64,000 nucleotides of DNA, from contig OX597833.1 in NCBI GenBank assembly GCA_951406725.2, forward strand, positions 70,556,001-70,620,000. Direction: 5' to 3'. Each line of letters opens with the position of its first letter. Positions within the stretch are counted from its first letter, which is position 1. Origin of the DNA: Octopus vulgaris (lineage: Eukaryota). Below are positions 22,467 through 48,862 of the stretch, in pieces. Below the pieces are notes generated by a model, which was given only the letters and a program-made list of their open reading frames with translations, made no database searches and was not told the origin of the DNA. Both the position numbers and the translations under genes were made by a program.

Positions 22467-22517
22467 TTTGTCAGTGAAGAGGTCGCGGTCTTAAAGCGAC
22501 GAAAATATTTTGACAAA
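22467..22517 (+). ncRNA. Variant hammerhead motif (G3 core, extra G after A9)
   Basis: TTTGTCA-GTGAAGA-g-GTCGC-ggtcttaaa-GCGAC-GAAA-ATAT-TT-TGACAAA. Perfect 7-bp stem I, 5-bp stem II, palindromic stem III. Confidence 0.6.
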
Positions 22518-23133
22518 TTAAACTTAAATGTTGGAAGTGAATCGAACGGCTTTTGTTGTGTTTCTAAAATGGCTTACAAACACCTTCCACGCTGCAAAAA
22601 AATATATAAGATTTCATTAATTAATTTGTAATTAATGATGACGGAAGTGAAAAAAAAAAAACAGAACACTTTGGTCGAGAAACAGTTTACAATTTCGAGG
22701 AATATGTTTGAAGTTAAGAAAAAATATTTCGAATGTTTTAAGCCCGGAAACTGCGAACGTACTTTCTTTTTATATTTATTAATTAATATAATAAATAAAA
22801 ATTATAGGTAAATAACAAAAAGGCTGGTATTAAGTTTTGTATTTTTCTGTTCTATAATCTAAATAACATTGTGTTTTTTTAATGGACCTCGATAAGAAGT
22901 TTTTACTTTCGATATCATTTTGTGGGAAGAAAATAAAGGTTCGTGGGTGAGGTTTAGCTGCTATCTTTAGCAAAGTGGTTGCGCCGCCTCTTCCCCCCTC
23001 CACCACCACCCCTTATGTATTATTTCGTCTACAGAGTATTTGGTAACGAAGAAAAGTCCGTTTAATTACGTTTTAATTAGCCTTCTTTCGCCTTTTAATA
23101 AGTCTTAGGTATTTATTCTATTCTTCTTCTTAC

Positions 23134-23327
23134 CTTTGATGTGGTGGAACCATCGAAGGAGGACTTTCCACTGGCGTTAAAGATTTCCGATCTAAAGCTT
23201 TGCCACAGGTTTTACTCTTGACAACAGTTTTAATCTGTGTCTTGGATTTGGAAAGGTTTCCTTTAAGCCAGTCATCGTAGTGGTCCAAGGTTAGATCTGG
23301 GGTGAGGAAATTCGTGTTTACTGCCAT
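23134..23327 (-). CDS. TDRD9: TDRD9/spindle-E coding exon 1 (MAVNTNFLTPDLTLDHYDDWLK...PPHQ)
   Basis: ATG at 23327 in gcgATGG context. Donor AG|GTAAG at 23134/23133; 194 nt, phase 2. LTLDHYDDWL resembles the TDRD9 N-terminus (LTIEQINDWF-like). Phase fits the next exon. Confidence 0.8.
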
Positions 23328-23410
23328 CGCGGACCAAAAGCCATGCGAGGACTATTATTGACATCAGCCGACCATTTCCAGCCACACTTTCGTAGTTCCA
23401 CTTACTTACA
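23328..23410 (-). promoter_or_regulatory. Putative TDRD9 5'UTR/core promoter
   Basis: Short CpG-containing stretch upstream of the ATG with GGAACTACGA and AAATGG motifs. Positional inference only. Confidence 0.35.
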
Positions 23411-23866
23411 TACACTTTCCTATTTAGTATCGTTTTAAATATATATGCATAAATAGATATATGGATTATTCGTAATGATATTTTCTGGGGTGTTTCGAGC
23501 CGTTATAACCAGCTCGGGAATAAATGTGTTTTTTAACCACTCGCATATCCGTGTAAATAGTTTCACTTTTCCGGTGAGGTCAGCTTTGCCTTTCATTCTT
23601 TCGGTGTCGATGAAATAAAGTATCCGCTTAAACACTTGGTCAATGTAACCGACTTGACCTCTTTTACTCTTTTGCCTGTTTCAGTCATTTGACTGCGGCC
23701 ATGCTGGAGCACCGCCTTTAATCGAGCAACTCGACCTATTCTTTTGTAAGCCCAGTACTTATTCTATCGGTCTCTTTTGTCGAACCGCTAAGTAACGGGG
23801 ACATAAACACACCAGCATCAGTTGTCAAGCAATGCTAGGGGGACAAACACAGACGCACAAACATAT

Positions 23867-23909
<43 letters not shown>

Positions 23910-24594
23910 TACGACAGACTTCTTTCAGTTTCCGTCTACCAAATCCACTCACAAGGCTTTGGTCGGCCCGAGGCTATAGTAGAAGACACTTGCCCAAGGT
24001 GCCACGCAGTGCGACTGAACCCAGACCCATGTGGTTGATAAGCAAGCTACTTACCACACAGCCACTCCTGCTCCTGCGCCCTTAAAATTACTGGCCTTGT
24101 GTCAAACTTGGAAACCATTATTATTGTTGATGTTGTTGTTGTTGTTGTTGTGGTGGTGGTGGTGGTGGTAACAAAAAAGTTAAGGGTGATAGGAGGAGCA
24201 GAGGTAGTTGGGCCGGGTATATTTGGGGAAAGGGTCTGCCGTTAACTAGTTGAGAATCATAGAAGCCAAGACAGTAATGGCAGAAGAGGCAAAGAATAGA
24301 ATGATGTCTGGTGTAAATGGTGAATGAGTCTTCAACAACCAGACAGATGACCTTCTTTTGGATGTAGTCTTAGATTGACATAGTAAGCCATTGTTAGTGG
24401 CTTTTATTTGAGCTTTGTAGAGATTGCAGTAACCGAAGAGGACTGAAGCATTTTCTGCCTAGAAGAGAAACACAAAGTTTTTGAGTTGAATAATAAATGA
24501 AATAAGAAATGAGGAAAGCTTTGACAATGCAGAAAGTTTTAAAATGTTTGACAGAGTGTAAGCACCTTGAGAGAAAAGCTAGGCAAAAGAGGCA

Positions 24595-24835
24595 TCAGAT
24601 GTGGTGTGCAAGAGAGGCAACTGTGATGGTATGGTCATGTGATGTGTATGGATGAGGACAGCTGTGTAAAGAAGTGCCAATTTCTAGCTGTGGAGGGAAC
24701 CTGTGGTAGAGGTAGACCCAGGAAGACATTGGATGAGGTGGTGAAGCATGATCTTTGAATTTTGGGCCTCGCAGAGGCAATGACTAGTGACTGAGACCTT
24801 TGGAGATATGTTGTGCTTGAGAAGACCATTCAAGC
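24595..24835 (+). mobile_element. RTE LINE 3' end fragment
   Basis: WYGHVMCMDEDSCVKKCQFLAVEGTCGRGRPRKT in a plus frame. Similar remnant at 59330-59515. Confidence 0.75.
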
Positions 24836-24921
24836 CAAGTGAAATTATAGTTTATATTTCGGGTGCAAAAGCCCGTCTTCAGAAAGATACAGCCAAAGGA
24901 ATATATACTTCCATAGATTTT

Positions 24922-25110
24922 GCCATTTTGGCTAACTGTATGGGCAGTGACCCCATTTTGGCTAACTGTAAGGGCAGTGACCCCATTTTGGCTAACTGTA
25001 AGGGCAGTGACCCCATTTTGGCTATTTGTAAGGGCAGTGACCCCATTTGGGCTATTTGTAAGGGCAGTGACCCCATTTTGGCTAACTGTAAGGGCAGTGA
25101 CCCCATTTTA
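24922..25110. repeat. 30-bp minisatellite x~6 (ccattttggctaactgtaagggcagtgacc)
   Basis: Direct reading. Confidence 0.95.
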
Positions 25111-26624
25111 GTCTGATGCTTGTGCTTGTAGTAGCAGCACCCCAAATGGTGCCATATAGGTGACACTGGGGACAGTGGTGGAAGAATGGCACCGGTGGTG
25201 AAGGTGGTTGTCAGTGGTGTTGAATGCTGTGGTAGTTGTTGGTGGTTGTAGTAATGGTGAATGCTGTGGTAGATTCTGAGGCTGAAGTTTTTATTATGTT
25301 AAGTCTGTGAGTCACCAGGCAAAATCATGAGAGATGTTTTTACACCCATTCCTTTTAACAAGTTAGTTTTTAAGGAAGAGGTTCAAAGTATTTTCCTTTG
25401 CTCCCCTCCCCAACCTCTTCCAGATTTTAGGGGGTGCAAGTGCACCCCTGCATCCCCTATTCTCAAGCCTATAGTGATGCTTGTGTACAGAGTGTGTGTT
25501 GTATGGAAGCAAAAGATAAGCCTCAAAAGCAGAGAATTTGTGAATGCTGGAATGAAGTGAAGCAAGCATGCCCTGTTAAGTTAATTTTTTGGCTTAAAAA
25601 GCAAAAAGCAAGGCCATGTAGGGGGACATGGAGTTATGTACAGGGAGGGTGTTCATGCAAAGAGTTCAGGCCATTTCTGGTCAAGAGAGACTTTGAACCG
25701 AGCAGTCGTCAGCATCTTCACTATCTTGTCCTGCAGCTTATTCCACAGATCCCCAACCCGGACGGAGAAAGCCCCTCTCCTTCGATTGAGATGAATTCGT
25801 CGCAGATAGAGCTTTGTGGGTCAGAATCATCATCACCATCATCATTTTGTGTCCATTGTCCATGGTGGCATAGTTTGCACGGTCTGACCAGGGCTGGCAA
25901 GCTGGGTGGTTGCACCATACCCCAGTTTGATTTGACATGGTTTTCTACAGCTGGATGCCCTTCCAAATGCCAACCACTCCAAGAGTGTAATGAGTGCTTT
26001 TACGTGCCACCCACATGGGTGCCATTTCTTGGTACCGGTATCTGCCACAACTGCGATTTTACTTGGCATGATGGGTCTTCTTCTCAACCACGACATAATG
26101 CTAAGATCTTGGTCGTTTGCCATTGCTTCCATGAGGCCCAGTGCTTGAGAGGAGCTTTCCACTTGCCACTGCCTGTTTCCAAATCTTCCATGAAAGCAAG
26201 TCTAGCCATCGGGAAATATTATCTGGCTTCGAAGTAAGGTTTGGTGAGAGGAAAGGCATCCGGCCGTAGAAAAATCTGCCTCAGCAAATTCCTTCTGACC
26301 CATGCAAGCACAGAAAACGTGTAAGTTAAAACGATACTGACCCCTTCATGCACAGTTATTGATGCATGTCCATGTGGTACGGATGTTTGTTTGTGTGCGC
26401 GCGTGCCTGTATACACGTGCACACCACACGATAATGCATCACAACACTGACTCACACACACACATAAATAAATAAATGTGTGTGTATGTGTGTGCAAAGA
26501 TGAGTGTGAGTGTGTGTGTGTGTGTGTGCATATGTCTTTGTATGTGTGTGTATGTATATGTATATATATATAAAACATTAATAAACAAATAAATCAAAAA
26601 GTATACCCTACCCATCCTTGCATT

Positions 26625-27035
26625 GTCTCTGTCTCTTTTTCTCTCTATCTTTCACTTTCTCAGTTTCTTTCTCTTCCTCTTTCTTTCTCTCCCTTTTTAT
26701 CTTTCATTCTTTCTTTCTCTCTCTCTCTCCCTTTTTATCTTTCTTTCTTTCTTTCTCTCTCTCTCTCTCTTTTACTCTTTCTTTCTCTCCCTTTTCTCTT
26801 TCTTTCTCTCTCTTTTATCTCTTTCTCTCTCTAGCTTTCACTTACTCGATTTCTTTCTCTTCCTCTCTCTCTCTTTTACTCTTTCTTTCTCTCCCTTCTT
26901 ATCTTACTCTCTCTCTCTCCCCCTTTACATCTCCCATTACCTCCCTTTCTCTCTCCCTCCCACTCCTACACAAACACATCCTCACCACTCCCTCTCCCTC
27001 CTCCTCCTTCCTCTCTCTCTCCCCTCTCCCCATCC
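26625..27035. repeat. Polypyrimidine (CT/CTTT)n tract
   Basis: Direct reading. Confidence 0.9.
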
Positions 27036-27039
27036 TCAT

Positions 27040-27160
27040 TTACTTTTATGACGTGATGCGCAGTAGAGCTGCGCACTAAAACACAGTGTATGGCTGCCAC
27101 CATCACTGACAGCCGACTGTCGGCCGTTGATGCACTTTTATCGGCCGCCGATTCCACCAC
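27040..27160 (+). promoter_or_regulatory. Putative SNRK core promoter/TSS region
   Basis: CRE-like TGACGTGA (27049), two TGCGCA (27057, 27070) and YY1-like ATGGCTGCC (27090), with local CpG enrichment just after a polypyrimidine tract. Begins a SINE-free zone leading to the SNRK ATG. Confidence 0.45.
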
Positions 27161-29052
27161 AACAACAACAACTTTCTCTACTGTTTTCTTTTTTTCCATC
27201 GAACACGACCACCACCACCCACACACGAAACCGTGAACACTCCGCTTCTAACTCAGCCATTGAACTCCTCCACTACACACAACACTGGGACCGGACCACC
27301 ACCTCCATCACCTTTACCTTCTTCCTTCACCCCAAAAAACGTCTCACCTTTATGTAATTAACAGGTGTAAATATTACTAAATATACGCATACCATACGAC
27401 ACATGTATGTATATGATAAACACCGAAGCACACATCTGAGTGTATATATCGTATATATACCCATATATAAATAATTAAGCGAAGCACACATGTAAGTACG
27501 TCCGCCACAATCTTCCTTGCTGCTGTTCACACTTAAATTCTATAATTGCTTCTGTTTGGAAGCAGAACCAGTCTATTTGTGTATATATAAATATACATAC
27601 GTGTGTGTATATTGATATAGATATATTTATATAGATACAGGATTTACATGTATTTGTATATACATTGAATTGTTGTCCACTGTCGCTGTTCACACCACAT
27701 ATATATATATATGTGTGTATATATATGTATGTATATATATAGCATTGCTTCTGTTTGAAAACAGAACCAGTATATTTGTGTGTATATTGATATACATATA
27801 TTTATATAGATACAAGATTTACATGTATTTGTACGTACATTAAATTGTTGTCCATTGTCCCTGTTATATATATATACTAAATAATTAGGGGATCTTTTCT
27901 AAAAGAAAGATCCTAATTAGGGTTCACCAACTGTTTGCCTCACCACATACTGAAGTTTAGAAATAGCAGTCAAAATCTTGGCTATTCTTTCTACTTTATA
28001 TATATATATATATATACTGTTGCTACAGTTTGAAAACGAAGCAAAATAATAATAATAATTATTATTATTATAGCATTGGCAACAAAGATATTGAATCTTC
28101 TTCCCCTCCGCTGCTGCCTCGTCCAGAAAATAAATGAAAATAAACTCTTTGAAGGATGCCGTTACGTGAGATCGTCTCAACAATTCCCAGCTTTGGTCCT
28201 CCCCCGTCATCATAAGTGTCTCAGCATCCGTTGTGATTGATTGATCATCGTCGCCGACGTTGTTGAACCGCCAGGATTTCGGTGGAGTGGAGTGGAGTGG
28301 AGTAAACCGTTAAACCCGTATACGTTGTATTTTGCAAATTCTTATTTGGAACCTCGACCACCACCAAGGAAGGAAGGAAGGAAGGAGTAACACACACACT
28401 CACCCCTTGGGCCCGAGTGCGAGCACTGCTGACTTGGGATTTTTTTTGCACAAAAACGGATTTTTATACTCAAACCAATTCTTGTTATTTATTTTTGTTT
28501 AAAAAGAAAAAGAAAAAAAAAGAGAGCAAAAAACAAAACAAAGACTAACAAAGTAAGAAAGAAAAAAAAACAAGAAAACATTGTTCGTATAAATAATCAA
28601 TCAATCATCGATTTCTCTGCCCCCCCACCACCGTTCTTATTTAACCATTCATCGATCTCTTTCTTAACGTCCATTCGCTTCTTTAAACTAAACTAAACGT
28701 TCGTTCCTTCATTCCTCTCTCTCTCTCATTCTTAGATTTTTCTGCTCTTTTTTTTTTTTCCTTTTTCATTCACCTTCGATTCTTCTTTGGTTAGAAAAAA
28801 AAAATATTCTTTCTTCTTCTTCTTCTCCTTCTTCATCCATCCGGCCAGTCTTCATTCACTTCATGGTTGTTGTATATTCCTGAAATTTCTCCCCCACCTT
28901 CAAGAGATCTTTAGTTCCACGACCAACCAACCTTCTATGTATGTATTCTGCAATGGAATGAGATTTCTCTGTTCCTCACACAAACCAAATGCATAAATTA
29001 TAAGGAGGAGTCAAAGACAAAAACAGACATAAAGCAAAACACACACAGAGAA

Positions 29053-29108
<56 letters not shown>

Positions 29109-30675
29109 TGCCAAGCCATACTATAAACCTATCCAAACAAAAACTACCCTCCTTATTTTAATTCTAAATTGCTTTGTTTCGTTGTTAAGTTCCTTGATAT
29201 CAATTATTTTGACTTGTAATGAAAGCAAACGAACACCACAACAGCAACAAAATGTAATATCATTGTCTTTCTTTAAACAGGAGGAAGTGAAAAAAAAACC
29301 ATAAAATAGGAAAAAGTAGTTTATTTTGGACCTCGCCCTCACTCGTTCACTCTCTCTCTCTCTCTCCCTTCCAGCAGCATCATCACCATCATCATCACCG
29401 CAATCATCATCGCCAGAAGAGAGAGGGGGGAAACAACACAGGCTTAGTAAGTAAGTAGTAACTAACAACACCGTGCTAGTAGTAGTAGCATCAGCGGTGG
29501 CAGTATTTCATTGAGGAAAAACGCGACTATATTTATCCACAGCTACTAAACCCTCCCCTCCACACGTTATCCCATTCATCCCCAGATTCTCTGAGTTCCT
29601 TATGTTGTTGCCATTTCGTTGGCAAGCAGGATTTCACAGACATTCTTTCTCTCTCTCAGCCTGTCTTCATGTGTGTGTGTGTGTATATATATATCTAAAT
29701 AGAAGATGCGTTAGTGTTCGTACTTTATCAGTTAAGCGAGTGAGTGAGTGAGAGTACGTATGTGTTATATACACATACATACATACATAGATAAGAATAT
29801 ATATATATATATATATATAATATGTAATGTCTGAAAATCTTTTCGGTTACCGATATGTGACCTCTCCATGTTTGCGTGAGTGTGGCGTGGTGTGGCTGTG
29901 GTGCAGCAGGACTTAAGTACGAAACCAACCCCCACCTATGATTGGGGGTTGAAACGAACCGGTCAGATATTGGTGGATCTTTGGCGGTAAACATTGGTTT
30001 GCCCTTTTGTCAAAACACTTAGTTGAAATGTCCTTTATAGTTTTCCTGGTCGCCCATCCACCCTCGTCCAAAAAACGAAAACACACACGGAAGCCCGCCT
30101 CGTTTATTAATCATTAGATTAGATACAACAACACCAAGGATATATACAAGACGAAACCTTAGTTCTTTATTAAATGAATACACTCTCGGTTTCTGCTCTC
30201 TCTCTCTTCTTTCCCCTCTTTTTTACTTTCTCCTTTCTTTTAGCTCTACCTTTGTTTATAAGTATCAAATCTCCTTGTTCCGGTGCCCTATTTGAACCGT
30301 TGCCAGCTTGTCCTTACCACTTTCTGATCGACATTTTAAGTCTTCTTATATGGGGGTTATCGGATTTTGTTTTTGCCCTTACTAATCACTTACTAGGCTC
30401 CTCCATATCTTCGATCTCTAAATCTATATCTTTTCTCCATCATTTTCACTTATCCCCGTCTTCATCCTCATTATCATCACTATTTCCATCATTCTTAGAT
30501 TCACCCCATTTTTTTAACCCACCGTAGTCTTATCTCACCACACCCTTTTCATTACACACTTGTCATTAAATAACTGCTGTTCCAATTGTTCAGACCATAC
30601 CTATATCTATATATATATACATATATATATATTACCTTTCATTTTTCTATTTTAAATATTGTCCCTTCATTCTGA

Positions 30676-31270
30676 ATGGCTTCTCGTAAGCAACGTGGTG
30701 ACTATGATCGAAAGATTGCTGGTCTGTATGACCTGGAAGACACGATTGGCCGGGGCCACTTTGCTGTCGTGAAGCTGGCCCGGCATGTGTTCACAGGCGA
30801 GAAGGTCGCCGTCAAAGTTATCGATAAAACTAAACTTGATGAAGTGTCAAAGAACCATCTGTTCCAGGAAGTGCGGTGCATGAAATTGGTGCAGCATCCT
30901 AATGTTGTCCGCCTCTATGAGGTGATTGACACTCAGACCAAATTGTACCTTATTTTGGAGCTGGGTGACGGTGGAGACTTGTACGATTACATAATGAAGC
31001 ACGATAAGGGCCTCAATGACAGCCTGGCCCGCAAGTATTTTAAGCAAATTGTAGATGCCATCTCGTACTGTCACCAGTTGCACGTATGCCACAGAGACCT
31101 CAAGCCTGAAAACGTGGTCTTCTTTGAAAAACTAGGCATCGTTAAGCTCACAGATTTTGGATTTAGCAATGTCTTTAAACCTGGCAAAAAACTAGAGACT
31201 TCATGTGGTTCCCTTGCCTATTCGGCACCAGAGATCTTACTCGGAGATTCTTACGATGCTCCAGCTGTTG
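30676..31270 (+). CDS. SNRK: SNF-related serine/threonine kinase SNRK, first coding exon (N-terminal ~3/4 of kinase domain)
   Basis: [59 protein letters not shown] and [24 protein letters not shown] are diagnostic of SNRK. Donor GTTG|GTGAGT at 31270/31271, phase 1. Confidence 0.96.
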
Positions 31271-32171
31271 GTGAGTTACCCTTTTGATCTTTTTTGTTCT
31301 TTTTAATGTTTATGTGTTGTTTTTGTTCACTGCTCATCATCTTGGTTGGGTGAAGGTCTTAACAGTCCTCAACTGAAATGTCTTCACAGTTATATAACAC
31401 ACACACGTGTGTGTATTATAGCATTATTATATTTTGTTTCCACACAGCAAAGCAAGAAAGATTTGATGGGAGAAAGAATTAAATGACCGAATTTATTGTG
31501 TTGGAAGGTGTCTTGTACAAACATAAAGATTAAGTCTTTGATTATTCAATGGTGTTGCTACCATTTCCAAAAGATAACGAAAACAATGATTAACCTAGGT
31601 TGCCCTACCACCTGGGCAAGAGTCATCATTATCACCATTATAATGTACCCTTTGCCTTTCATCCCTTCGGGGTCGATAAATTAAGTACCAGTTACGCACT
31701 GGGGTCGATGTAATCGACTTAATCCCTTTGTCTGTCCTTGTTTGTCCCCTCTATGTTTAGCCCCTTGTGGGCAACAAAGAAATGTATAATGTCCTCTTTT
31801 GCATGCTTGCATGGGTCAGACAGAAATCATCGAGTCAGATTTTCTGTGGCCAGATGCTTTTCCCCATTACCAACCATTGCTTGGTGCCAAGCAAGGTAAT
31901 ATTTCACCAAGGCCTGACATTTTCCACAGAAGATTGGAAGTGAACAACCACTTGAATGACTGCGATACTTGTTTCACAAACATCACGTGATGTCAAGGAC
32001 ACATACACACACACATACATGATGGGCTTCTTTTAGTTTCCGTCTACCACATCCACTTTGATTTTTAGTTGCACAAGATGCTCCATGGTGGAACCTAACC
32101 AGAACCCGCGTGGCTGGGTTTATGGCAGACTTCTTAACCACACAGCCATGCCTGCACCCATAGTAGTTGTG

Positions 32172-32693
32172 ATACCTGTGCCGGTGGCACATAAAAAGCA
32201 CCATCCGAACGTGGCCGTTGCCAGCGCCGCCTCGGCTGGCTTCTGTGCCGGTGGAACATAAAAAGTACCATCTGAACGTGGCCATTGCCAGCGCCGCCTC
32301 GACTGGCTTCTGTGCCGGTGGAACATAAAAAGCACCATCCGAACGTGGCCATTGCCAGCGCCGCCTCAACTGGCTTCTGTGCCGGTGGCACATAAAAAGC
32401 ACCATCCGAACATGGCCGTTGGCAGCGCCGCCTTGGCTGGCTTCCGTGCCGGTGGCACGTTAAAAATACCAACTGATCGTGGCCGATGCCAGACTCCCCT
32501 GGCACCTGTGCAGGTGGCACGTAAAAAGCACCCACTACACTCGCGGAGTGGTTGGCGTTAGGAAGGGCATCCAGCTGTAGAAACTCTGCCAGATCAGACT
32601 GGAGCTTGGTGCAGCCCCTGGCTTCCCAGACCCCGGTTGAACCGTCCAACCCATGCTAGCGCAGAAAACGGACGCTAAACGATGATGATGATG
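32172..32693 (+). mobile_element. Family A copy with ~6 tandem modules
   Basis: Repeated ~66-nt modules, then common core and (ATG)n tail. Confidence 0.85.
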
Positions 32694-33408
32694 TAAAACC
32701 GATTACATCACTCCCCGGTATTTCACTGGTATTTATCTTACCGCAAAACAAAAGTCAAAGTTAAGCCTGACAGGTGAGATTTAGTTGATACCACCGTCCT
32801 CGGTACTTGGTTTTGTCAACCTCAAGGGGATAAAAGACAAGGCTGACCTCACCAGCATTTGAACTCAGAACACAAAGGAATGGAAGAAAAGCCAGAAGGC
32901 ATTTTTGTCCAATGCTCTAAAGATTCTAGCAACTTCCTGCCTGTTTAATAATTTTGAGTTAGTGACAAGACAAGCAATTTTCAAAGGAAGGAGTTAGTTG
33001 ATTAGATTGACCCCCGCTAGTACTTGACTGGTCCTTTATTTTATCAGTCCCAGAGGGAAGAAAGGTAAAGTTGACTTCAGTTGGATTTGAACTCAGAATG
33101 TAAACAGCCAGAACAAATAACACAAGGTATCCCCCCCCCTCCAGCACCCTAATGATTCTGATAATACTTTGCCCTTAAATGTTCCAGTCTCAGGTCAGTG
33201 GCACCCATGCTGGTGGCATGTAAAAAAAATACCCACTACACTCTCAGAGTGGTTGGCGTTAGGAAGGGCCTTGCAACCTTAGAAACCTTGCCAAATCAGA
33301 TCGGAACCTGGTGCAGCTCCACAGCTTACCAGTTTTAAGTCAAACTGTCCGACCCATGCCACCGTGGGAAACGGACATTAAATGATGGTGATGATGTGTA
33401 CACATAAT

Positions 33409-33467
<59 letters not shown>

Positions 33468-33870
33468 CGCAGGAGTGGATGTGTGGTATGTAGCTTGTTT
33501 ACCAACCACTTGGTTCCGAGTTCAGTCCCACTGCATGACACCTTGGGCAAGTGTCTTCTACTATAGCCTCAGGCCGACCAAAGCCTTGTGAGTGGATTTG
33601 GTAGACGGAAGCTGAAAGAAGCCTGTCGTATATATATATATATATATATATATATGCGTGTGTGTGTTTGTGCGTCTGTGTTTGTCCCCCTAGCATTGCT
33701 TGACAACCGATGCTGGTGTGTTTATGTCCCCGTTACTTAGCGGTTCGGCAAGAGAGACCGATAGAATAAGTACTGGGCTTACAAAGAATAAGTCCTGGGG
33801 TCGATTTGCTCGACTAAAAAGGCGGTGCTCCAGCATGGCCGCAGTCAAATGACTGAAACAAGTAAAAGAG

Positions 33871-33914
<44 letters not shown>

Positions 33915-36900: not shown

Positions 36901-37559
36901 GAACATCAAAACCCATCAATTGCTTTCACCCGGTTGGCTTTTTACCCTTTACAATTTAAATCGGCCACATCTGGGCCAAATATTCTACCTATTTTTTATA
37001 TTCTAATTGACCAGATCAGGCCTCTCACACCGATCCTACCTACAATGTAATTTTAAAAATACACAGTTCCGTCATTAAAATCTCAAAGCTCTAAGATATT
37101 GCATGATAAATTCAAAGCAATTTCATTGAATAAAAGCATCAATTTGATGGAGTAATCTGAATGCTAAAGGCTTGGAGACTACATCCACTCCAGTCTTTTC
37201 CAGTGGTTATTGGAGTTATCTCCTTTGTTTTTAGGATTTTTAAGCACCACTTAAGGAAATTTCTATCCAGTAATTGCTCAGTCTTCATTGATCACATTTT
37301 ATCCCTTATTTCTTTCATCTGGTAGTACACTTGTTGTTTAATCCTTGGTCAACCCTGGTTGAATATACCTATGATTGAAAGTACCTAGTCACGAACAATC
37401 ATTTTGTTCCAAGACAGAATATCTAGGATTACATTATCTGATAAAGCTTTCCCCATTTTTTGGTTGATGGGGGTGTGAATTGAGGGAAATTTGGCTGCTA
37501 TTGCTAGCACCTCAAAACACCACGTAGTGGATTCCTCGTTGGCTCATTGTAAATGCCAT

Positions 37560-37735
37560 TGTTGTTTAGCCCCGGTCCAGCTCTGATTGAGTAGGTCTAT
37601 CATCAGTGTTTTCCATGACCATCCCATCTGATTTTTCAGAAAATGTATGCAAGACTATATTACACAGTGTGTCCTTTTTTGTTAAGACGGTACAGTGATT
37701 TAAATGGAGATTTGACTGCTATTTCTAGCAAGTCG
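37560..37735 (-). mobile_element. Older repeat family D (ends ggggctaaacaacaa)
   Basis: Diverged copies with gtttagccccaggtcagccctgat...gggagatttggctgctatttctagc at 37330-37545, 38045-38245, 55870-56020, 58010-58205, 58560-58760(+), 39290-39470(+). Confidence 0.65.
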
Positions 37736-39617
37736 CCTTTCAACAACATCGTCGTTCACTTCTGTGTTTTTGTTGCTATTCATCGTTGTCATCGTCGTCA
37801 TCGTCATCACAGTGACATTGGCATTGCTGGTGCCATTTCTGTATCAGCTGACTCGGTGCGGGTGCTGAGATCGTCGTCGCTGGCAACACTTGTTGTACAA
37901 TGCACAGCTTGTGTCTGCTGCTGCTGCTGCTGCTACTACAAGTAGCTGAGCAAGCTAAGGGCGTGACGATCAGATGGAAATGAAGTGGAGCGTGTCCGGT
38001 TTGAATCTACTACTGTTTGTTGCTGGTCATAATTTGTCTTGGCGGGTTATTTAGCCCCAGGTCAGCCCTGACCAAGCAGACCAGTAACCAGTGACCGAAA
38101 GCATTCCAATCCTGACCATTCTGATGTTTTTTTTCCCTTCTACTGTCATAATGTACCTTGGTCTACGTTATCCAATGTGTCCTTCATCCTCTGTTTTATG
38201 ACTGTAGGGTTTAATATCAAGGGAGATTTGGCTGCTATGTCTAATGGGTCCATGGGCTGTATTTGTTTTGTTATTTTTATAGATGATATGTAAAAAGCAC
38301 CATCCGAATGTGGCTGATGCCAGTGCCACCTGACTGGCGTCCGTGTCGGTGACATGTAAAAAGCACCAAGCAATTGTGGCCGTTTGTTAGCCTCCTCTGG
38401 CCCCTGTGCCAGTGGCACATAAAAAGCATCCACTACACTCTTGGTGTGGTTGGCGTTAGGAAAGGCATCCAGCTGTAGAAACACTGCCAGATCAGACTAG
38501 CGTCTGGCGCAGCCTCCTGGCTTCGCAGACCCCAGTCAAACCGTCCAACCCATGCCAGCATGGAAAACGGACGTTAAACGATGATGATGATGTTTAACTC
38601 CAGTTCAGATCAGATCCAGCAGACTTGTGCTAAAAAAACAAATCCACTTGCTTTCATGTTCCCCTCTTTTTTTCTTTTATATATGTGTGTGTATGTTTAT
38701 AGATATATAAGCATATATATATGTTGATACATATATAGCCTCGGGCCGACCAAAGCCTTGTGAGTGGATTTGGTAGACGGAAACTGAAAGAAGCCCGTCG
38801 TATATATGTGTATATATATATATATATATATGTGCATGTGTGTGTTTGTGTGTCTGTGTTCGTCCCCCTAGCATTGCTTGACAACAGATGCTGGTGTGTT
38901 TACATCCCCCATCACTTAGCGGTTCGGCAAAAGAGACCAATATAATAAGTACTGGGCTTACAAAAGAATAAGTCCCAGGGTCGAGTTGTTCGATTACAGG
39001 CGGTGCTCCAGCATGGCCGCAGTCAAATGACCGAAACAAGTAAAAGAGCGTATGCATATTATACATACATATACATGCATGCATGTGTATACATTTATAT
39101 GCATGTATAACATTATATATTTATCTTAGATGTAGAACCACTTGTCAACATTGTTAAGAAAATAGGGTGTGGTCTGAAGAAGGTTTGACTGCTATCTCTT
39201 GCATATTGAGTGTCCAAGTAGAGATGTCTTTGCCCTGCATTTTGTTTACTATTATACACCATGCAGCAATATATACATCTATGGAGGGACCCTCTGTGTA
39301 GTCACTCAACTTGCTAGAGGTAGTAGCCAAATCTTCCTCTAATTGCTCTCTACCATTTTTAAAATGTTCCTAAGTACACTGTATCTGAAAAGAAAATGTG
39401 AGCTGATTAGGGCTGGAATGCCTTTGACCTCTGACATAGTCAACTAGGGCTCAGTTCAGGTTAAACAACAACATTATATCTAGTTATTTGCATATATATA
39501 TACTTTATTTAAAAGCAGCAGAAATATATATACATATATATATATACCGGAGTAAACACATAAATATGAAACAAGGTGGAAAAAAGAGTACTCAAATACC
39601 AGTGGTAGAGTAATATG

Positions 39618-39750
39618 CTTTATTTAAAGCAGCAGCAAATTCAACAAGACCTGTTACTCTGAGTTTCCTGTTGCCAAAACTGTCTGATGAACGGCAACGG
39701 GAAACTCAGAGTAACAGGTTTTGTTGAATTTTCTGCTGCTTTAAATAAAG
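39618..39750. repeat. Fold-back palindrome (58-bp arms), Penelope-like inverted terminal remnant
   Basis: 39618-39675 is the reverse complement of 39693-39750 with few mismatches. Flanked by (TA)n. Confidence 0.85.
39676..39722 (+). ncRNA. Minimal type-I hammerhead ribozyme motif (Penelope-like)
   Basis: aaaaCTGT-CTGATGA-acgGCAAcgg-GAAA-CTCAGAG-TA-ACAGgtttt. Intact core, stem I CTGT/ACAG, near-palindromic stem III, GUA site at 39711-39713. Confidence 0.75.
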
Positions 39751-40740
39751 TATATATATATATATATACACTAGCAGAGATACGTGGCTTTGCCCATTTC
39801 GCATGGAATTGAAGAATTAAACTTTTCTTTTATATTTTATCTAATGAACTTGAATACCTATGATTCGAATTTCATCAAAATTGCAGATTAAGAATTTTAA
39901 TGGGGATTTTTTCCCTCTTTACACACCCTAACAAAAATTCTAATCATGACATATTTATCCCATACTACTCATCTTTATGCCCAGATTCCAAAATCCAAAT
40001 CTTATGAAACCTATTCAGAGGTTTTTACACCTGAAAAATGGAGCACATGGAGCGCTAAAATGTGGGAGTTAAGGCCCGTGTGGGGGTGGGGTCTTAAAGT
40101 CAACCAGAGAAGTTGAATTGTTGGGAATCTTTTTACATTGGGTCTGATATCTATTGTTATAATTTCTTTGAAATCAGAAATATATGAATGTTCACTGGGT
40201 TTGTAAAAGAGAGTAAAGCTACAGGAAACCAAAAGACGAATGATCACAATAAGCAGTCAGCTACCCTACCCTAGTCGTTACCACTCCCCAGTGTAGGATT
40301 CCTCACCATACAGGTGACAGGCACAGCCATAAGATGCATTAAAGATCTATAGCAATTGGAAGGGTGTGACCTAACTCAAACATTAACAACGGTGTGACTG
40401 TGATGTGAGGGCTAAGGGGAAATGAAAGTGTCACCTCTATAGTTTGCCAATGACCACTATACTGATAGGTAACTGAACAGAATAAATATACAATCTATAA
40501 ATGTCTTTGAATAATCAGTCACTCATCTGGGAAGGGCCTTGAAATCAGTGTTACCATCTGGGGATTATGTGTGACTCAATGATAATAAAAAGACTGAAAG
40601 GAGGTCTGCAACCAAATAACTTTACTCAACACTTTGCAACTGAATCAGTGGAGGCAAAGATGCCTCTCCTTTACTTGACAATTTATGCACCACATTGCAG
40701 GAATCACAATCTAAGTATATCTCAAAACAAACATACTGCA

Positions 40741-40968
40741 TTAACCCTTTAGTGTTCGCATTATTCTGCCAAAATTAATCCTTTTTTATCCACATTGTTT
40801 TGAACTAATCATGCATTATCTTGTAGCGATGAGATTTTGGTGAGGTAGCTGTTAATTTTTAAAATGATATTGTAGGGTTGGTGTGAGAGACCAGATCTGG
40901 CCATTTTGAACATGGAACAGGCAGAATACTTTTGGCCGGATATGGCCGGTTTAATTACTAAAGGGTTA
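40741..40968. mobile_element. Second TTAA/CCCTT MITE family
   Basis: ttaaccctttag ... ctaaagggtta. Homologous copies at 1097-1303, 21320-21548 and 36944-37170. Confidence 0.7.
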
Positions 40969-43355
40969 TACCTGCCCTTATGCATTGACTCACAAGCTTA
41001 CAATGGTGAGCCAAACACCTGAACCACTAAGCCATGTGCCTTTAGTTTCTAGGAAATACGATGTTGGGAAGCAATAAAACACACCTTGATTTTGTGCTTC
41101 AGTGCAGAATAGCAATCAGAATTTTTAATTTTCTTCTTTTTTCGGTAACCAAATATCTTTATACAAGTTTCTGAACTTTGGCCTGAGTTTAGAGTCATTT
41201 TGGAGCGAAATTCTTTTTTTCTCCTATTACTATTATCTTGCTGCTAAGTATCTAGGAATGGCTTGATCACCCAGTCGGGTATTTTAAGCAACATAAACAA
41301 AGATTCTGAAATCTACAGCACCTGTCTCTATGAATCTTGTTCAGAAAAGATCAGAAACGGAAAGAGTTCACAATGAGCTCTTTTCTTTGAATAACTGTAA
41401 CTTGATCAGAAATGTGGAGAGGGCTAAAGGGCAAGTTTGCCTTTCATAGGATTGCTTTGTTGTCATTGCAAAGTAACTTTGTTGAATTCTGTAAATATAT
41501 AATATATATATATATATATACACATATATAGTGAGAGTTTACAAAAGACGAAGGCGGGTGTGTAAACAACAAACAGATGTATTAGTTTAACACTCGGGAA
41601 GTGAGAAAGTCTTTTAGGTTTCAAGTATACACTCTTTGACAGAAAGGAACACAGAAATAAACAGGGAGAGAAAATTAAAAAAAGGTATATGCAAGCGCCG
41701 CTTCACTGGCATCCGTGTCATTGACACGTGAAAAGCACCAAACGATCGTGGCTGTTTGCCAGCCTCCTCTGGGCCCCTGTGCCGGTGGCACATAAAAAGC
41801 ACCCACTAGACTCACGGATATAGTTAAGATAAAAGCAAGCAAGTAATGTCTTCTGCTTGATGTTTCTGACTTCAGAGAATAACAAGATTTAGTGTCTTTT
41901 AAAGAATTCTTCAACTGTTTTGAGAAGTGAACAGAACTGCCTTGGGCAGTTTCTCTTAAACAACCATTTAACTTTCATGTGTGTGTGTGTGTGTGTGTGT
42001 CTCCAACAATGGAACATTCATAAACTCCCACCAGGAACTAAGAACTTGTGTTCTTAACTTCATTAACAGGATGCTTAACGATTCCTGGAGTTGGCCTCTT
42101 TTGTCTGCGACCAAATGTTGCCTATGGATTATACAGTGCCCTGCAAAAACAGATGCAGCTTTACTTTTGTATTTTGTATTTTTAAGAAATTGAGGAAGTC
42201 ATGATGATCGTGAGTCATTAATGGCACCCCCCTCCATTATACAAAAAACGTTTATAAGCAGGATGTTCTGTCTGAAGAAATTCTCAACAACACAAAATAC
42301 ACACTTACCATTTTTTAACTCTTTCTTGTCTTACAAATAAATACCACATCTCTTGAACCAAACTTTTGTCTCTGATGTATCTTACGGAAGCAAGAAGCAC
42401 TGTTTTTGGGGATAATCTGGCTTAAATACAGACAAGTAGCTGCCCTAAACACAACATAACCTATAGCATGCATATATATTCATGTATACATATGTGTGTA
42501 TATATATAAAGCACCCACTACACTCTTGGGGTGGTTGGCATTAGGAAGGGCATCCAGCTGTAGAAACACTGCCAGATCAGACTAGAGCCTGGTGCAGCCT
42601 CCTGGCTTCCCAGACCCCGGTTGAACCATCCAACCCATGCTAGCATATTTAGCGGACGTTAAACGATGATGATATATATATACACACACACACACACACA
42701 TACATATGTGTATGTATGTAGATGCAATTCAGCATCTCCATGGTTAAGAAGTTTGCTTCCCAACCAGGAGGTCCTGAGTTCAATCCTACTGCATGATATC
42801 TTTGGCAAATGTAATTTTCTATGGCTTCGGGTCAGTGAAAATGGGTTGTCAAAAACTTTATAGAAGCTTGTCAGGGGCATTCAAAAAGTACAGACTTGTT
42901 ACTACTCACTCTCCATCACACTCATTCTTTGGAGACCCACCATTACTCTGTGTGTGTAGTTGTATTTAAGGGGTGAGTCCACGCCCCTTGCAACTGTAAA
43001 ACCCCTGAAATGGGGCCTCACTACCAGATGCAGTTTAATGTCTTATACAGGACAAAGCCATAGGGAAGACAGCTCTTCTAGATGACACTTATCTCTTTAT
43101 CTCTTTACTGTCCACAAGGGGCTACACACAGAGGGGACAAACAAGGACAGACAAACGGATTAAGTCGATTTTATCGCCCCCAGTGCATAACTGGTACTTA
43201 TTTCATTGACCCTGAAAGGATGAAAGGCAAAGTCGACCTTGGTGGAATTTGAACTCAGAGCATAACGGCAGACGAAATACTGCTAAGCATTTCGCCCAGG
43301 GCGCTAACGATTCTGCCAGCTTACCACATTTTTATTATTCTATTATATATTATAC

Positions 43356-43389
<34 letters not shown>

Positions 43390-44259
43390 ATAGATAGATG
43401 TGTGTGTATATGTATGTATAATGTGCATGTGTAATATAATTATATAAATATTAGTTATATAAATACAAGTTAATGCTGTCTGATCTTACATAAATATAAA
43501 TAAATAATTATATCGTGTGTCACTACATAGAAAGAACTACCCTACAACCATCTCGGCTGCTCCTTTTTCCTCAACCCCACCCGTTTTCAATCTTTCCACT
43601 ACCCCTAAGGGAACAAGCCCCTCATCTGCTTTGAGAATGGCTTGGGTGGCAAATAATAATATTATTTTTGCGTAGGGGATCATCTGTTAACATTGTTTTG
43701 AGTTGATCCCTAATCTGACATACTAGGATCGGAGGATCTCCAGCTGGGATCATCTTCTGGGTCTTGTCAAAGCATCGGTTAAGCAGGGGTTTCCATTTTC
43801 CTTAGGCGTCAGCTGTTTTTACTTTTTGTGGGTGATTCATTGTAATTTTTTTAAGGCAGATTTAACTACAATTTCTAGCAGAGAGACTGACCAACACGAA
43901 GCTTCCTTCGTTGTCTCATTGTTCTATGTGTGGTTTTTACGCTTAGACTTTTGGATTCTGATAAAATTCAGGCATGTACGTGTGTGTGTGTGTGTGTGTA
44001 CGCTGTGTGTTTGTCTGAGCATACGTAAACATGTGTGATTTTGTGTTCATTCATAGGTGTGTTTGTGTATAATCAATGTATTCTGTGTGTGTACATTATG
44101 TCAGATAGTAAACGTTTTTGAATAAGGATTTGTAAACAACAATGTAAATTGTGGAGCAAGAGGGGGGTGGAGAAGGGGGGAACTGGGCGAGGTTCATTCA
44201 GGTAAAACAATACTTATTGATTAGTTTGAATTGTTGTTGTTGTTATTATTATTATTAAA

Positions 44260-45258
44260 GGCGGTGAGCTGGGTGAATCGTTAGCACGCCTGATGAAATG
44301 CTTAGCGGTATTTCGAGGTTGACTTTGCCTTTCATCCTTTCGGGGTCGATAAATTAAGTACCAGTTACGCACTGGGGTCGATGTAATCGACTTAATACCT
44401 TTGTCTGTCCTTGTTTGTCCCCTCTGTGTTTAGCCCCTTGTGGGTAATAAAGAAATAGGTATTTCGAGGTTGACTTTGCCTTTCATCCTTTCGGGGTCAA
44501 TAAATAAAGTACCAGTTCCGCACTGGGGTCGATGTAATCGACTTAATACCTATGTCTGTCCTTGTTTGTCCCCTCTATGTTTAGCCCCTTGTGGGTAATA
44601 AAGAAATAGGTATTTCGAGGTTGACTTTGCCTTTCATCCTTTCGGGGTCAATAAATAAAGTACCAGTTCCGCACTGGGGTCGATGTAATCGACTTAATAC
44701 CTATGTCTGTCCTTGTTTGTCCCCTCTGTGTTTAGCCCCTTGTGGGTAATAAAGAAATAGGTATTTCGAGGTTGACTTTGCCTTTCATCCTTTCGGGGTC
44801 AATAAATAAAGTACCAGTTCCGCACTGGGGTCGGTGTAATCGACTTAATACCTATGTCTGTCCTTGTTTGTCCCCTCTGTGTTTGGCCCCTTGTGGGTAA
44901 TAAAGAAATAGGTATTTCATCTGCCGTTACGTTCTGAGGTTGACTTTGCCTTTCATCCTTTCGGGGTCGATAAATTAAGTACCAGTTCCGCACTGGGGTC
45001 TATATAATCGACTTAATACCTATGTCTGTCCTTGTTTGTCCCCTCTATGTTTAGCCCCTTGTGGGTAATAAAGAAATAGGTATTTCGTCTGCCGTTACGC
45101 TCTGAGTTCAAATTCTGCCAGGGCTGAATTTGCCTTTCATCCTTTTCAGGTTGATAAAACAAGTACCTGTTGTTGAGCACTGTGGGTGGGGTGGTGGTTG
45201 ATCTAATCAACTTACCCCCTCCTCCGAAAATGCTGGCCTTGTGCCAAAGTCGGAAATC

Positions 45259-45260
<2 letters not shown>
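44260..45260 (+). repeat. Concatemer of SINE B body (151-bp period x4, then 168 bp)
   Basis: Units start ggtatttc at 44307, 44458, 44609, 44760, 44911 and 45079. Confidence 0.92.
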
Positions 45261-45289
<29 letters not shown>

Positions 45290-45500
45290 TTAAGGCAGCA
45301 AAACTGGTAGAACCCTGACCACAGTGGACAAACTATTTTAGTGGCATTTTGTCTGTCTTTACGTTCCGAGTTCAAACGTCACCAGGGTCCATGTTGTCTC
45401 ATCCATTTGGGGTCAGTAAAATAAGTACCAGTGAAATGCTGGGATTAATTACATCGAGTAACCCCTTTCCCCCCAAATGTTAGGCCTTGAGCCTATGGCA

Positions 45501-46068
45501 TAGTGGTTCCTAACCTGTGGTCTGTGGATCCCTGGCGGTCTACAAAGGTAGTACCGGGGGTCTGTGAACTAAATTCAAAATTTCATATATATATATGGCT
45601 GTGAGGTAAGAATCTTGCTTTACAACCACATGGTTCCGGGTTCAGTCCCACTATGTGACACCTTGGGTAAGCCTCTTCTACTTTAGCCTCGGTCCGACCA
45701 AAGCCTTGTGAGTGGATTTGGTAGAATGGAAACTGAAAGAAGACCATCATATATATATATATATATGTATATATATGTGGAGGCGCAATGTCCCAGTTGT
45801 TAGCGCAGCGGACTCACAGTCGTAGGATCGCGGTTTCGATTCCCAGACCGGGCGTTGTGAGTGTTTATTGAGCAAAAACACCTAAAAGCTCCATGAGGCT
45901 CCGGCAGGGGGTGGTGATCCCTGCTGTACTCTTTCACCACTCTTTCTCTCTCTCTCTTTCTTCTGTTGGCCTGCTCGCTTAGCCAGCGGGGTGGCGTCAT
46001 TCGAAGGCTAAAACAATGCGAACGCATTGTGACCAGCGATGTGTAGCAATATCTGATGTCTGGTCGGT

Positions 46069-46124
<56 letters not shown>

Positions 46125-46370
46125 GTGTGTGTGTCCTCACTGTTGCTTGACAACTGATGTTGATGTGTTTACATCCACATAACTTAGCAGTTCAGCAAGA
46201 GATCGATAGAATAAGTCCCGGGGTCAATTTGTTTGACTAAAGGTGGTGCTCCAGCCTGGCTGCAAACGAATAACTGAAACAAGTAAGGATAAGCATATTA
46301 AAACGGGGTCTGTGGGAAAATTCATTTAAATGAAAGGGGTCCTTGGTGGTGAAAATGTTGGGAACCATTG
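45501..46370. mobile_element. hAT (Charlie/MER5-like) MITE interrupted by nested SINEs
   Basis: tagtggttcctaacc ... gttgggaaccattg inverted ends. Confidence 0.6.
45779..46076 (+). mobile_element. tRNA-derived SINE family E nested in the (TA)n of a family C SINE
   Basis: ggaggcgcaatgtcccagttgttagcgc...ggtttcgattccc head; ends ggtcacgtgat; (TA)n on both sides. Confidence 0.8.
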
Positions 46371-46622
46371 ATCTATAGCAGAAAGGATTATTATTATTAT
46401 TGTGGATGGGTGGGTGTATGAAGAGCATGGACTGATGGATCTTTACAGGTTGGGAGTCACACACACAGTGACAGGTATCCTGGAGTTTCCATCAACCAAA
46501 TTCACTTTACATGGCTTTGGTCGGCCTGAGGCTATAGTAAGAAGACGCTTGCCCAAGGTGGCCACACAGTGGGACTGAACCCCGAACCATGTGGTTGGGA
46601 AGCAAATTTCTTACCACGCAGT

Positions 46623-46662
<40 letters not shown>

Positions 46663-46783
46663 CACACCTACACCCCCATCGTTCCTTAAATCTTTCACCT
46701 TTGAACTGCCTTTAATGAAACAAAGCTACACACGCAGTCAGCGCTGGAGATAATGTTTTTTTTACTCCTTGAAACTTGCGTGC

Positions 46784-46816
<33 letters not shown>

Positions 46817-46919
46817 GTATTTAGCCCTAGGTCGAAGTCGAACTTAGCAGGCCTATGATCAAAGCAGATCCAACCATGACCACTCTTTATTTCTCTTCCA
46901 TATTTCCAATTATAATCTC

Positions 46920-47382
46920 TACTACTACTACTACTCTTACTACTACTACTGCTGCTGCTACTACTACTATTACTACAACAACTACTATTACTACTACTAC
47001 TACTATCACTACCACCACTACTACCATTACCACCACTACTACTACTATCACCTCTACCACCACTACTACTACTATTACTATCACCTCTACCACCACCACT
47101 ACTACTACTATTACTACTACCACCTCTACCACCACCACCACTATTACTACTATCACCTCTACCACCACCACCACCACTACTATTACTACTATTACTACTA
47201 CCACCACTACTACCACCTCTACTACTACTTCTACTATTATTACTATCACCTCTACCACCACCACCACTATTACTACTATCACCTCTACCACCACCACCAC
47301 TACTACTTCTACTATTATTACTACCACCTCTACCACCACCACTACTACCACCTCTACCACCACCATTACTACTACTACTACA
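46920..47382. repeat. (ACT/ACC)n simple repeat
   Basis: Direct reading. Confidence 0.95.
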
Positions 47383-48117
47383 TCCTGCTGTTTTAAGATT
47401 CGTTTATCCAATGATAAACGAATCTTTAAAATCTTACTTAAAGACTTCACGGTTTTGATGGTTTAAGAGACTCGTTTGTTGCTTCTTGGAATTGACGAGG
47501 AAGATTAATAACGAATATGGGGGAATATTGCGAAAATTCTCAATTTTAGCTTTACACTCATGATGGAGGGAGAGATTCTGAAAGGATCGCTTCTCTGTGT
47601 GTGTGTGTGTGTGTTGTTGTTGTTGTTGGTGGTGGTAGTGAGGGAAATCAATAACCAATCGATAAATAGCTTTACAGCTCCATGTATTTATAAGTGCATC
47701 TGTGTGTGTGTATATATGTATGTACAGTGTATGTATACATATGCGTATGCACATACTTTATACATACATGTGTGTGTGAGAGAGACACACACACACGCAC
47801 GCACACACACGCACACACACACATGCACACATACACTGCCATGCTACAAACATAGGGTGGCCTTCATTCGTAAGAGTCATGTGTCAGTGAGAACAGGGTG
47901 GCTGTGGGTAGAGAGATTCGATGAAGGGAGGAGAAGCACTCTTTGATTATATACAAATTCATCTTTCTCTTTATTCATCCATCTGGCTGCCTACACACAC
48001 ACACACACACACACACACAATTTTCTTAATTGATTTTGGTCTTTGTTATAATAAGTACCCGCACACATTTTTTTACTAGTTTCCGAGAACTAGTGTCCTC
48101 AAAGGTTTTTGCCGATC

Positions 48118-48218
48118 ATCTATCTCTCTCTCTCTCTATTTATCTATCTATCTATCTCTACCTATATCTATCTATCTATCTATCTATCTCTACCTATCTC
48201 TATCTATCTCTACCTATC

Positions 48219-48268
<50 letters not shown>

Positions 48269-48325
48269 CATATCTCTCTATCTATCCATATCTGTCTGTC
48301 TATATCTATCTACCTACCTACCTAC

Positions 48326-48383
<58 letters not shown>

Positions 48384-48412
48384 CTACCTATATCTATCTA
48401 TCTATCTATCTA
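48118..48412. repeat. (TATC)n microsatellite
   Basis: Direct reading. Confidence 0.95.
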
Positions 48413-48817
48413 CACACACACAGGGCAATTCATAATGAATGATACAATTTTTTGCAATATATTCATTGTAGCATTTACAGGTATTTTTTTTGTACCATTC
48501 ATTTTGAATTACCTTGTATGTATGTGTGCGTGCACGCATGTGTGTGTGTATATATATATATATATAGTAGGTACTGCAAATTTAGGGTGAATACTTTATA
48601 AGTGTAAGCACCTGTATATGCCAGATAGTGGCAGAGGTGAGAGAGAATATATTTGATATATATATATATATATATATTACAGAGATGTACTTGCATAGCG
48701 AGTGATTTGATCAGAGATCGTGTGCTGGAACGAAAACAATTGCAGCGTGGAAGGTGTTTGTAAGCCATTTAAGAAACACACAAAAGCCGTTCGATTCACT
48801 TCAACATTTAAGTTTAA

Positions 48818-48862
48818 TTTGTCAAAATATTTTCGTCACTAAAATCCGCGACCTGTTCACTA
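48818..48862 (-). ncRNA. Second copy of variant hammerhead with G3:C8 core
   Basis: Minus strand GTGAACA-g-GTCGC-ggatttta-GTGAC-GAAA-ATAT-TT-TGACAAA. Downstream ~80 nt homologous to 22517-22597; 5' strand of stem I is lost. Confidence 0.55.

Follow-up and report, generated by a model that had tools for sequence, protein, structure and literature searches.

A natural, high-copy G3:C8 variant of the minimal type I hammerhead motif in a Penelope-like element of Octopus vulgaris

The stretch of DNA analysed here, referred to as the window, comprises 64,000 nucleotides of the Octopus vulgaris genome (assembly GCA_951406725.2, contig OX597833.1, positions 70,556,001 to 70,620,000 of the forward strand). 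It carries two dispersed copies of one end of a Penelope-like element (PLE), and this end contains a minimal type I hammerhead motif in which the pair between core positions 3 and 8, C3:G8 in the canonical core, is G3:C8 in most copies of the family. The features of the two copies are given below; hammerhead numbering follows established knowledge.

22454..22597 (+): copy 1, 144 bp, 5'-truncated tail-less end (pseudo-long terminal repeat, pseudo-LTR) of the PLE
22467..22517 (+): minimal type I hammerhead motif of copy 1; the G3·G8 mismatch is a minority allele (from sequence, fold and allele counts)
22467-22473 / 22511-22517 (+): stem I of copy 1, 7 bp
22474-22480 (+): 5' strand of the core of copy 1, G3 U4 G5 A6 A7 G8 A9 (from sequence)
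22481 (+): extra G before G10.1, copy 1 (from sequence)
22482-22486 / 22496-22500 (+): stem II of copy 1 (from sequence)
22501-22504 (+): GAAA of copy 1, G12 A13 A14 A15.1 (from sequence)
22504-22509 (+): AATATT, a self-complementary palindrome of copy 1 (stem III in a dimer; from sequence)
22510 (+): U17 of copy 1; cut predicted after 22510, placed by hammerhead numbering
22569..22597 (+): copy 1, likely initiation codon of the open reading frame (ORF) with the codons that follow it; the ATG is at +115 of the family unit
48676..48861 (-): copy 2, 5'-truncated end of the same element with an optional 3' tail of about 60 bp, between (TA)n runs
48818..48860 (-): hammerhead remnant of copy 2, G3 U4 G5 A6 A7 C8 A9, without the 5' strand of stem I
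48676..48736 (-): optional 3' tail of copy 2, present in some family copies and absent in others

Copy 1 is 91.7% identical to the end of a copy with a long ORF elsewhere in the genome (L181), and its 3' end is the shorter of two end points seen in the family. Copy 2 is 97.6% identical to L181 over 48739-48861 and starts at 48861, directly after an (AT)n run and a short spacer. A preliminary description of the window, made from the sequence alone, had read the letters of copy 1 at 22467-22517 (+) as we do. For copy 2 it had rightly given a GTGAACA core with C8, though at 48818-48862 (-), where this core begins at 48860 and not at 48862. It had also assigned type I topology to both copies, which is true of copy 1, with its stems I and II, but not of copy 2, where the 5' strand of stem I is missing and the remnant alone cannot make the full hammerhead fold. 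Predicted folds of copy 1 and of an intact genomic copy (L180) contain stems I and II around an open core, and copy 2 folds without stem I. A complete G3:C8 ribozyme is present in neither window copy, copy 1 being G3·G8 and copy 2 lacking one strand of stem I, so that it is the family that carries the claim.

When the 64-kb window was scanned with a relaxed hammerhead pattern that left positions 3 and 8 open, copy 1 was the sole match, and no PLE ORF was found in the window. The Rfam hammerhead models gave no match among those listed for the window, and none in copy 1 or in the intact genomic copy; the one sister copy tested with a canonical C3:G8 core was likewise missed, and the failure is therefore not due to the swap alone.

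The family was counted in the 2.8-Gb genome with a 23-nt context of the motif in which positions 3 and 8 were free and all others exact. There were 4,559 matches against none for the reversed control pattern, which argues that the motif is not due to chance. G3:C8, obtained by subtraction, accounts for 4,130 of these (90.6%), G3·G8 for 171, G3 with A8 or T8 for 112 together, and a letter other than G at position 3 for 146. C3:G8 is absent from the first 100 of the 146 non-G3 matches, and all 12 matches of a separate search for C3:G8 are members of sister families. A second sample, picked only by the sequence 3' of the cut, yielded 7,320 matches; positions 3 and 8 are retained in 80 of the first 100, of which 74 have G3:C8 (by eye, about 10 of the 100 rows being repeats of one amplified composite). 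The genome-wide tabulation of positions 3 and 8 that the preliminary description had suggested thus gives a Watson-Crick 3:8 pair in 91% of matches, and its proposal of a cephalopod Penelope-like family with a swapped-core minimal type I hammerhead is borne out by these counts and by the parent ORF described below.

The remaining core positions (U4 G5 A6, A9, G12 A13 A14, A15.1:U16.1, H17 and G10.1:C11.1) are each conserved in at least 96% of the 156-165 copies covering the site, many of the loci having been retrieved by patterns that fix the 5' half of the motif. Variants above 10% in the family lie in loop II (4/8 sites) or keep the pairing as G·U (2 sites), and C8G is the sole frequent pair-breaking change. 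The family fails the literal C3/G8 consensus and keeps a Watson-Crick 3:8 pair. Contigs from four of 20 sequencing runs were compared; those of three (organisms A, B and D) covered positions 3 and 8, without a different letter at the 3% level, which is no proof of identity, and the fourth gave no coverage. RNA-like runs have an A>G signal at unit position +113; RNA editing was considered and rejected as its cause, 7/166 genomic copies having G at this site.

The G3·G8 allele is locally concentrated: 31 of the first 100 such matches listed lie on 0.6-7.4 Mb of contig C16. All 12 chromosome-16 copies examined are G3·G8, and their 3' flanks are unrelated except for one 78-bp match, as for separate insertions. 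Some of the C16 copies (L124-L129) stand beside ORF fragments 76-89% identical to the young subfamily, and one is a chimera of two subfamilies. In a tree of 140 copies, calculated with position 8 left out, G8 is spread over several subfamilies and is not basal; the resolution is low and chimeric copies exist, and both a G3·G8 intermediate and a later reversion fit this tree.

Family copies are typically 150-200 bp long, lie in (TA)n and often form head-to-head inverted pairs. Among 183 distinct copies the 3' ends form two groups, one from +144 to +150 and the other from about +200 onwards, some 55-60 bp apart. In longer copies a low-complexity spacer of about 1 kb separates this end from a GIY-YIG domain, and 18 loci picked for long open frames among 150 scored matches to this domain all contain the identical G3:C8 motif, 959-1,036 nt past the ORF stop; an inverted 5' copy is found at 10 of the 18. 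In a control, loci of another PLE family, the motif occurs in only 2 of 30, both times as a separate insertion. A non-LTR retrozyme, that is, non-autonomous tandem units without an ORF, was rejected as the source, the motif being linked to an ORF for reverse transcriptase (RT) and endonuclease (EN) in 18/18 long copies. The ORF at locus L047 was likewise rejected as the parent; it is part of another PLE, Neptune-like, that received an insertion of this element.

The longest open frame (L181) is 1,025 aa long and begins at an inversion junction. A structure model of an 839-aa frame has a predicted local distance difference test score (pLDDT) of 88, and its structural matches at ranks 1-4 are telomerase RTs. 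The RT carries a YVDD motif and, in L180 (4422-6938) and L181, about 65 extra residues between motifs A and B'. It is followed by a short cysteine linker, C-x3-C-x2-C, and, at the C terminus, a GIY-YIG domain (VYQIKC...YIGET, with conserved R, H and E), which aligns weakly (E 0.013) with a GIY-YIG that Pfam recognises in another PLE. Pfam gave no match for the L180 protein; of its 55 aligned homologues, seven match RVT_1 and four GIY-YIG. A 98%-identical NCBI protein is named Octopus vulgaris, and 321 database representatives match at E <= 1e-30. A PDB sequence search with the single protein gave no match, and one with a profile gave weak RT matches only. The element is an EN+ PLE with a single ORF for a telomerase-like RT and, C-terminally, a GIY-YIG, and it has the further PLE traits of 5' truncation, inverted 5' copies, an optional 3' tail and junctions at (TA)n microsatellites. 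Set beside Fig. S2 of PMC8557442, its linker resembles that of Nematis more than that of Neptune, by eye and without a tree.

At the 3' end of the unit, an ATG lies 56 nt past the predicted cut and opens a frame of 31 codons to the unit end in L180. No copy joining the motif and this ATG to the long ORF, as in a partial tandem, was found among the retrieved loci. One inverted-pair insertion with identical junction and flanks occurs many times on contig C1 (L038, L040, L059, L060), which suggests that it was re-amplified inside another repeat.

The scaffold UGUCA-core-G-GUC(G/A)C is common to two sister repeats, families B and C. A search for family C that left positions 3, 7 and 8 open gave 131 matches; C3:G8 was counted by eye in 92 of the first 100, position 7 being variable. 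Stem II reads GUCAC/GUGAC in family C versus GUCGC/GCGAC in the G3:C8 family, a double change. Homology of family C extends beyond the motif: four of five copies outscored 300/300 shuffles and the fifth was reached by 16. Family B is older and has U3·G8 in 14/26 copies, and its homology beyond the motif is weak, one of 10 rows beating all 300 shuffles. The roughly 4 kb upstream of 20 sister loci yielded no ORF. In stem III, the second pair varies between A-U, G·U and G-C in the three families. In a pair test of 21 rows, which were chosen by pattern and are related, stem II was 94% paired and 80% of cells were paired; the percentage paired and the covariation score beat all 500 shuffles. Since a homologous sister family has C3:G8 together with a double change in stem II, the 3:8 swap looks compensatory.

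Other hammerhead-like minimal motifs were met in the same genome, with U3:A8 at L127 and L140 and with canonical C3:G8, several times, at L028, L037 and L182; C:G, U:A and G:C thus all occur at the 3:8 pair in the Penelope-type repeats of this genome, in addition to the G·G lineage. The hammerhead A13 is normally invariant. A second young PLE (L111:4672-7023) has a 784-aa frame with a Neptune-like linker and Pfam matches to RVT_1 and GIY-YIG, and its 3' ends (L082-L120) have U3:A8, GCAA for GAAA and then the palindrome ACCGGT in 36/36 distinct copies.

The 5' ends of the copies bear on the RNA from which they were made. In the sample picked by the sequence 3' of the cut, 35 of 100 copies, by eye, start at or within a few bases of a point 22 nt before the core, and 2 of 100 run on upstream. 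AG precedes ATGC in 21 of 37 short copies, and 13 of these 21 have an extra G at a place taken by C or T in the genome (p = 4e-4 against 25%). A cap that is copied adds a G; our reading is that transcription starts at the point 22 nt upstream of the core and that the extra G derives from the cap. A TATA-like run lies at -30 in 68 long copies (L180:7876-7926 (+) and equivalents); an alternative reading of these bases is a branch point, pyrimidine tract and AG acceptor, the acceptor-like signal lying 13 nt before stem I. Spliced junctions were found in none of the 37 short copies, and the donor-like matches were (AT)n only. The insertion templates, as far as the copy ends indicate, were uncut RNA. 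Transcription would start about 22 nt upstream of the core, reverse transcription would start inside the first ORF codons, at two sites, and uncut RNA would be copied back to its 5' end, which would account for the thousands of copies of 150-200 bp and for their frequent arrangement as inverted pairs in (TA)n. Cleavage is apparently not needed for insertion. In a study of an anole PLE, catalytic mutants inserted normally in vitro and no reads were seen at the cut site (PMC11167929).

The window also contains dispersed repeats resembling short interspersed elements, with internal tandem units of 62-67 bp, at 4202-4594, 18173-18385, 32176-32532, 58789-58937 and 60949-61180. Tandem arrays at 44307-45106 and 51081-51643, with units of 151/168 bp and 190 bp, are derived from another dispersed repeat, and a perfect 21-bp minisatellite of 9.4 copies occupies 13620-13817.

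We hold with moderate confidence that this is a minimal type I hammerhead in the pseudo-LTR of a young, high-copy PLE, with G3:C8 at the 3:8 pair, which likely cleaves slowly after U17 with the aid of a dimer or a protein and is likely dispensable for insertion. In the anole PLE hammerhead, cleavage depends on the PLE protein; it is lost with either C3G or G8C and partly regained when the two are combined (PMC11167929). In an all-pairs mutagenesis the G:C swap was the sole rescue in the hammerhead motif (PMC9901934). By analogy, the G3:C8 motif likely still self-cleaves slowly. A G3-C8 mutant was reported, as 'data not shown', to be more active with G17 than with C17 (PMC3884650), on which basis U17 would be a milder competitor than C17 and may have allowed the swap. 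Positions 3 and 8 still make a Watson-Crick pair after the swap, stem III would be formed between two RNAs by their AAUAUU, and cleavage would probably occur only in such a dimer or with the element's protein. More tentatively, and with somewhat less than even confidence, we propose a naturally active G3:C8 hammerhead, fixed by way of two transversions in an animal retrotransposon with more than 4,000 copies, acting on RNA fate or translation rather than on insertion, and representing a swapped-core class missing from counts based on CUGANGA.

Several results weigh against an active swapped hammerhead, and much of this evidence would also suit a hammerhead descendant that no longer cuts usefully and persists as a folded element of the 5' untranslated region (UTR), a protein-binding element or a passenger, its 3:8 pair having been restored, after a first mutation, either because folding favoured it or by chance. 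We regard this as rather unlikely, though it deserves serious consideration. G3·G8, the equivalent of the inactive C3G mutant, is found in more copies (171) than A8 and T8 together (112), and this predicted-dead lineage has multiplied. Only about one of 100 copies in the sample picked 3' of the cut (by eye), and one of 108 in the retrieved loci, starts at the cut site, so that there is no excess of copies starting there. The double-hammerhead dimer is calculated at -28.8 kcal/mol, less stable than two monomers (2 x -15.4 = -30.8) and than a non-catalytic duplex at -32.7 kcal/mol; the monomer fold pairs G3 with U17, and this G3·U17 pair competes with the active form. Folding energies do not differ significantly from those of shuffled sequences (z -1.2 for copy 1, -0.3 for copy 2 and -1.8 for the intact genomic copy). 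In the pair test a double change is found in only one of 15 pairs, which 461 of 500 shuffles reach, and the uniformity of the copies is weak evidence of selection because the family is young. The U3·G8 of family B, the C for A13 in all 36 copies of the other PLE and the absence of an effect of catalytic mutants on insertion in vitro (PMC11167929) can be added on the side of a non-cutting descendant. Against such a descendant, the hammerhead consensus is kept at all other core positions in sister families that have diverged, also in the 3' half, which the search pattern left free, and in mutagenesis activity was rescued by this double substitution alone (PMC9901934). Canonical PLE hammerheads, moreover, are also without reads at the cut site (PMC11167929), so that the missing cut-end copies do not mark the swapped core as dead.

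An active ribozyme might have a translational task instead: cutting 56 nt before the ATG would remove the cap, the RNA then being translated (or destroyed, which would limit the element), and insertion would use the uncut RNA as its template. The motif does lie between the inferred RNA start and the ATG, the copies seem to derive from uncut RNA, and active type I hammerheads in the 5' UTRs of a chrysovirus were needed for cap-independent translation (PMC13725137). That precedent is viral, however, and a role at the RNA level is deduced here from sequence; the G3·G8 lineage with its ORF fragments still spread, though protein could have come in trans. We consider this explanation improbable. That the hammerhead resemblance arose by chance in a dispersed repeat is very improbable indeed: the weak z-scores and the lack of an Rfam match would agree with it, but Rfam missed the canonical sister copy too, the motif sits where PLE hammerheads sit (PMC4209133, PMC11167929), and the idea is contradicted by a homologous sister family with a canonical CUGANGA core on the same scaffold.

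The C3:G8 pair is written into hammerhead search patterns, which in their standard form would pass over this motif; descriptors should allow G3:C8. In the literature surveyed G3:C8 is a laboratory mutant only; here it dominates a recently active family, and together with the canonical sister family it gives natural support to the view that the pair matters more than its letters. Related elements with paired (G3:C8), mismatched (G3·G8) and canonical (C3:G8) versions, apparently copied from uncut RNA, offer a ready test of the role of Penelope hammerheads.

The closest known relatives of the motif are the minimal type I hammerheads of PLEs described by Cervera and de la Pena in 2014 (PMC4209133), which share its site in the pseudo-LTR, the one nucleotide that separates positions 9 and 10.1, the G10.1:C11.1 pair and a palindromic 15.2-16.2, and whose elements likewise have thousands of dispersed truncated copies and close pairs on opposite strands. 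The extra nucleotide and the palindromic stem III, which the preliminary description had stressed, are family-wide traits of these hammerheads and hence not unusual. Those compared from that paper have C3:G8, with one U3:A8 family (Schistosoma Cercyon), as opposed to G3:C8 in the octopus, where stem I is also longer (7 bp). In D. virilis Penelope an intron ends at helix I; in the octopus element an acceptor-like signal precedes stem I. The engineered C3G/G8C hammerheads (anole Poseidon PAc, PMC11167929; PMC9901934) carry the same double substitution and are partly active in vitro, while in the octopus a recently active family has G3:C8 naturally and as its prevailing core, with the cleavage triplet UUU. 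The anole Poseidon element has the same layout, with an ATG after the hammerhead (PMC11167929). Natural U3:A8 variants (Perreault et al. 2011, PMC3088659) are also a case of natural 3:8 covariation, reached by two transitions, whereas G3:C8, which does not appear in the section of that paper compared, needs two transversions. No published report of a natural G3:C8 hammerhead was found in an incomplete coverage of the literature, and its novelty is provisional.

As a transposon, the element is most like the Nematis and Neptune EN+ PLEs of Craig et al. 2021 (PMC8557442) in its RT, C-x3-C-x2-C linker and C-terminal GIY-YIG, and in its (TA)n targets, optional tail and inverted 5' copies. It differs from them in the approximately 65 extra residues between A and B', in DKS for DKG, in an ORF of more than 1,000 aa and in a tail of about 60 bp. 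Telomerases have the insertion in the fingers domain (IFD) at this A-B' site, and canonical PLEs with a C-terminal EN are described as lacking it (Craig et al., PMC8557442). Non-LTR retrozymes (PMC7229834), too, have type I hammerheads, in thousands of copies in animal genomes, one of them that of a mollusc; they are tandem non-autonomous units, however, whereas the octopus copies are the ends of a PLE with an ORF and are for the most part dispersed or inverted. Beside these systems, the octopus motif is a real and natural form of the Penelope minimal hammerhead, with G3:C8 and in high copy number; its activity is probably weak, and insertion probably does not need it.

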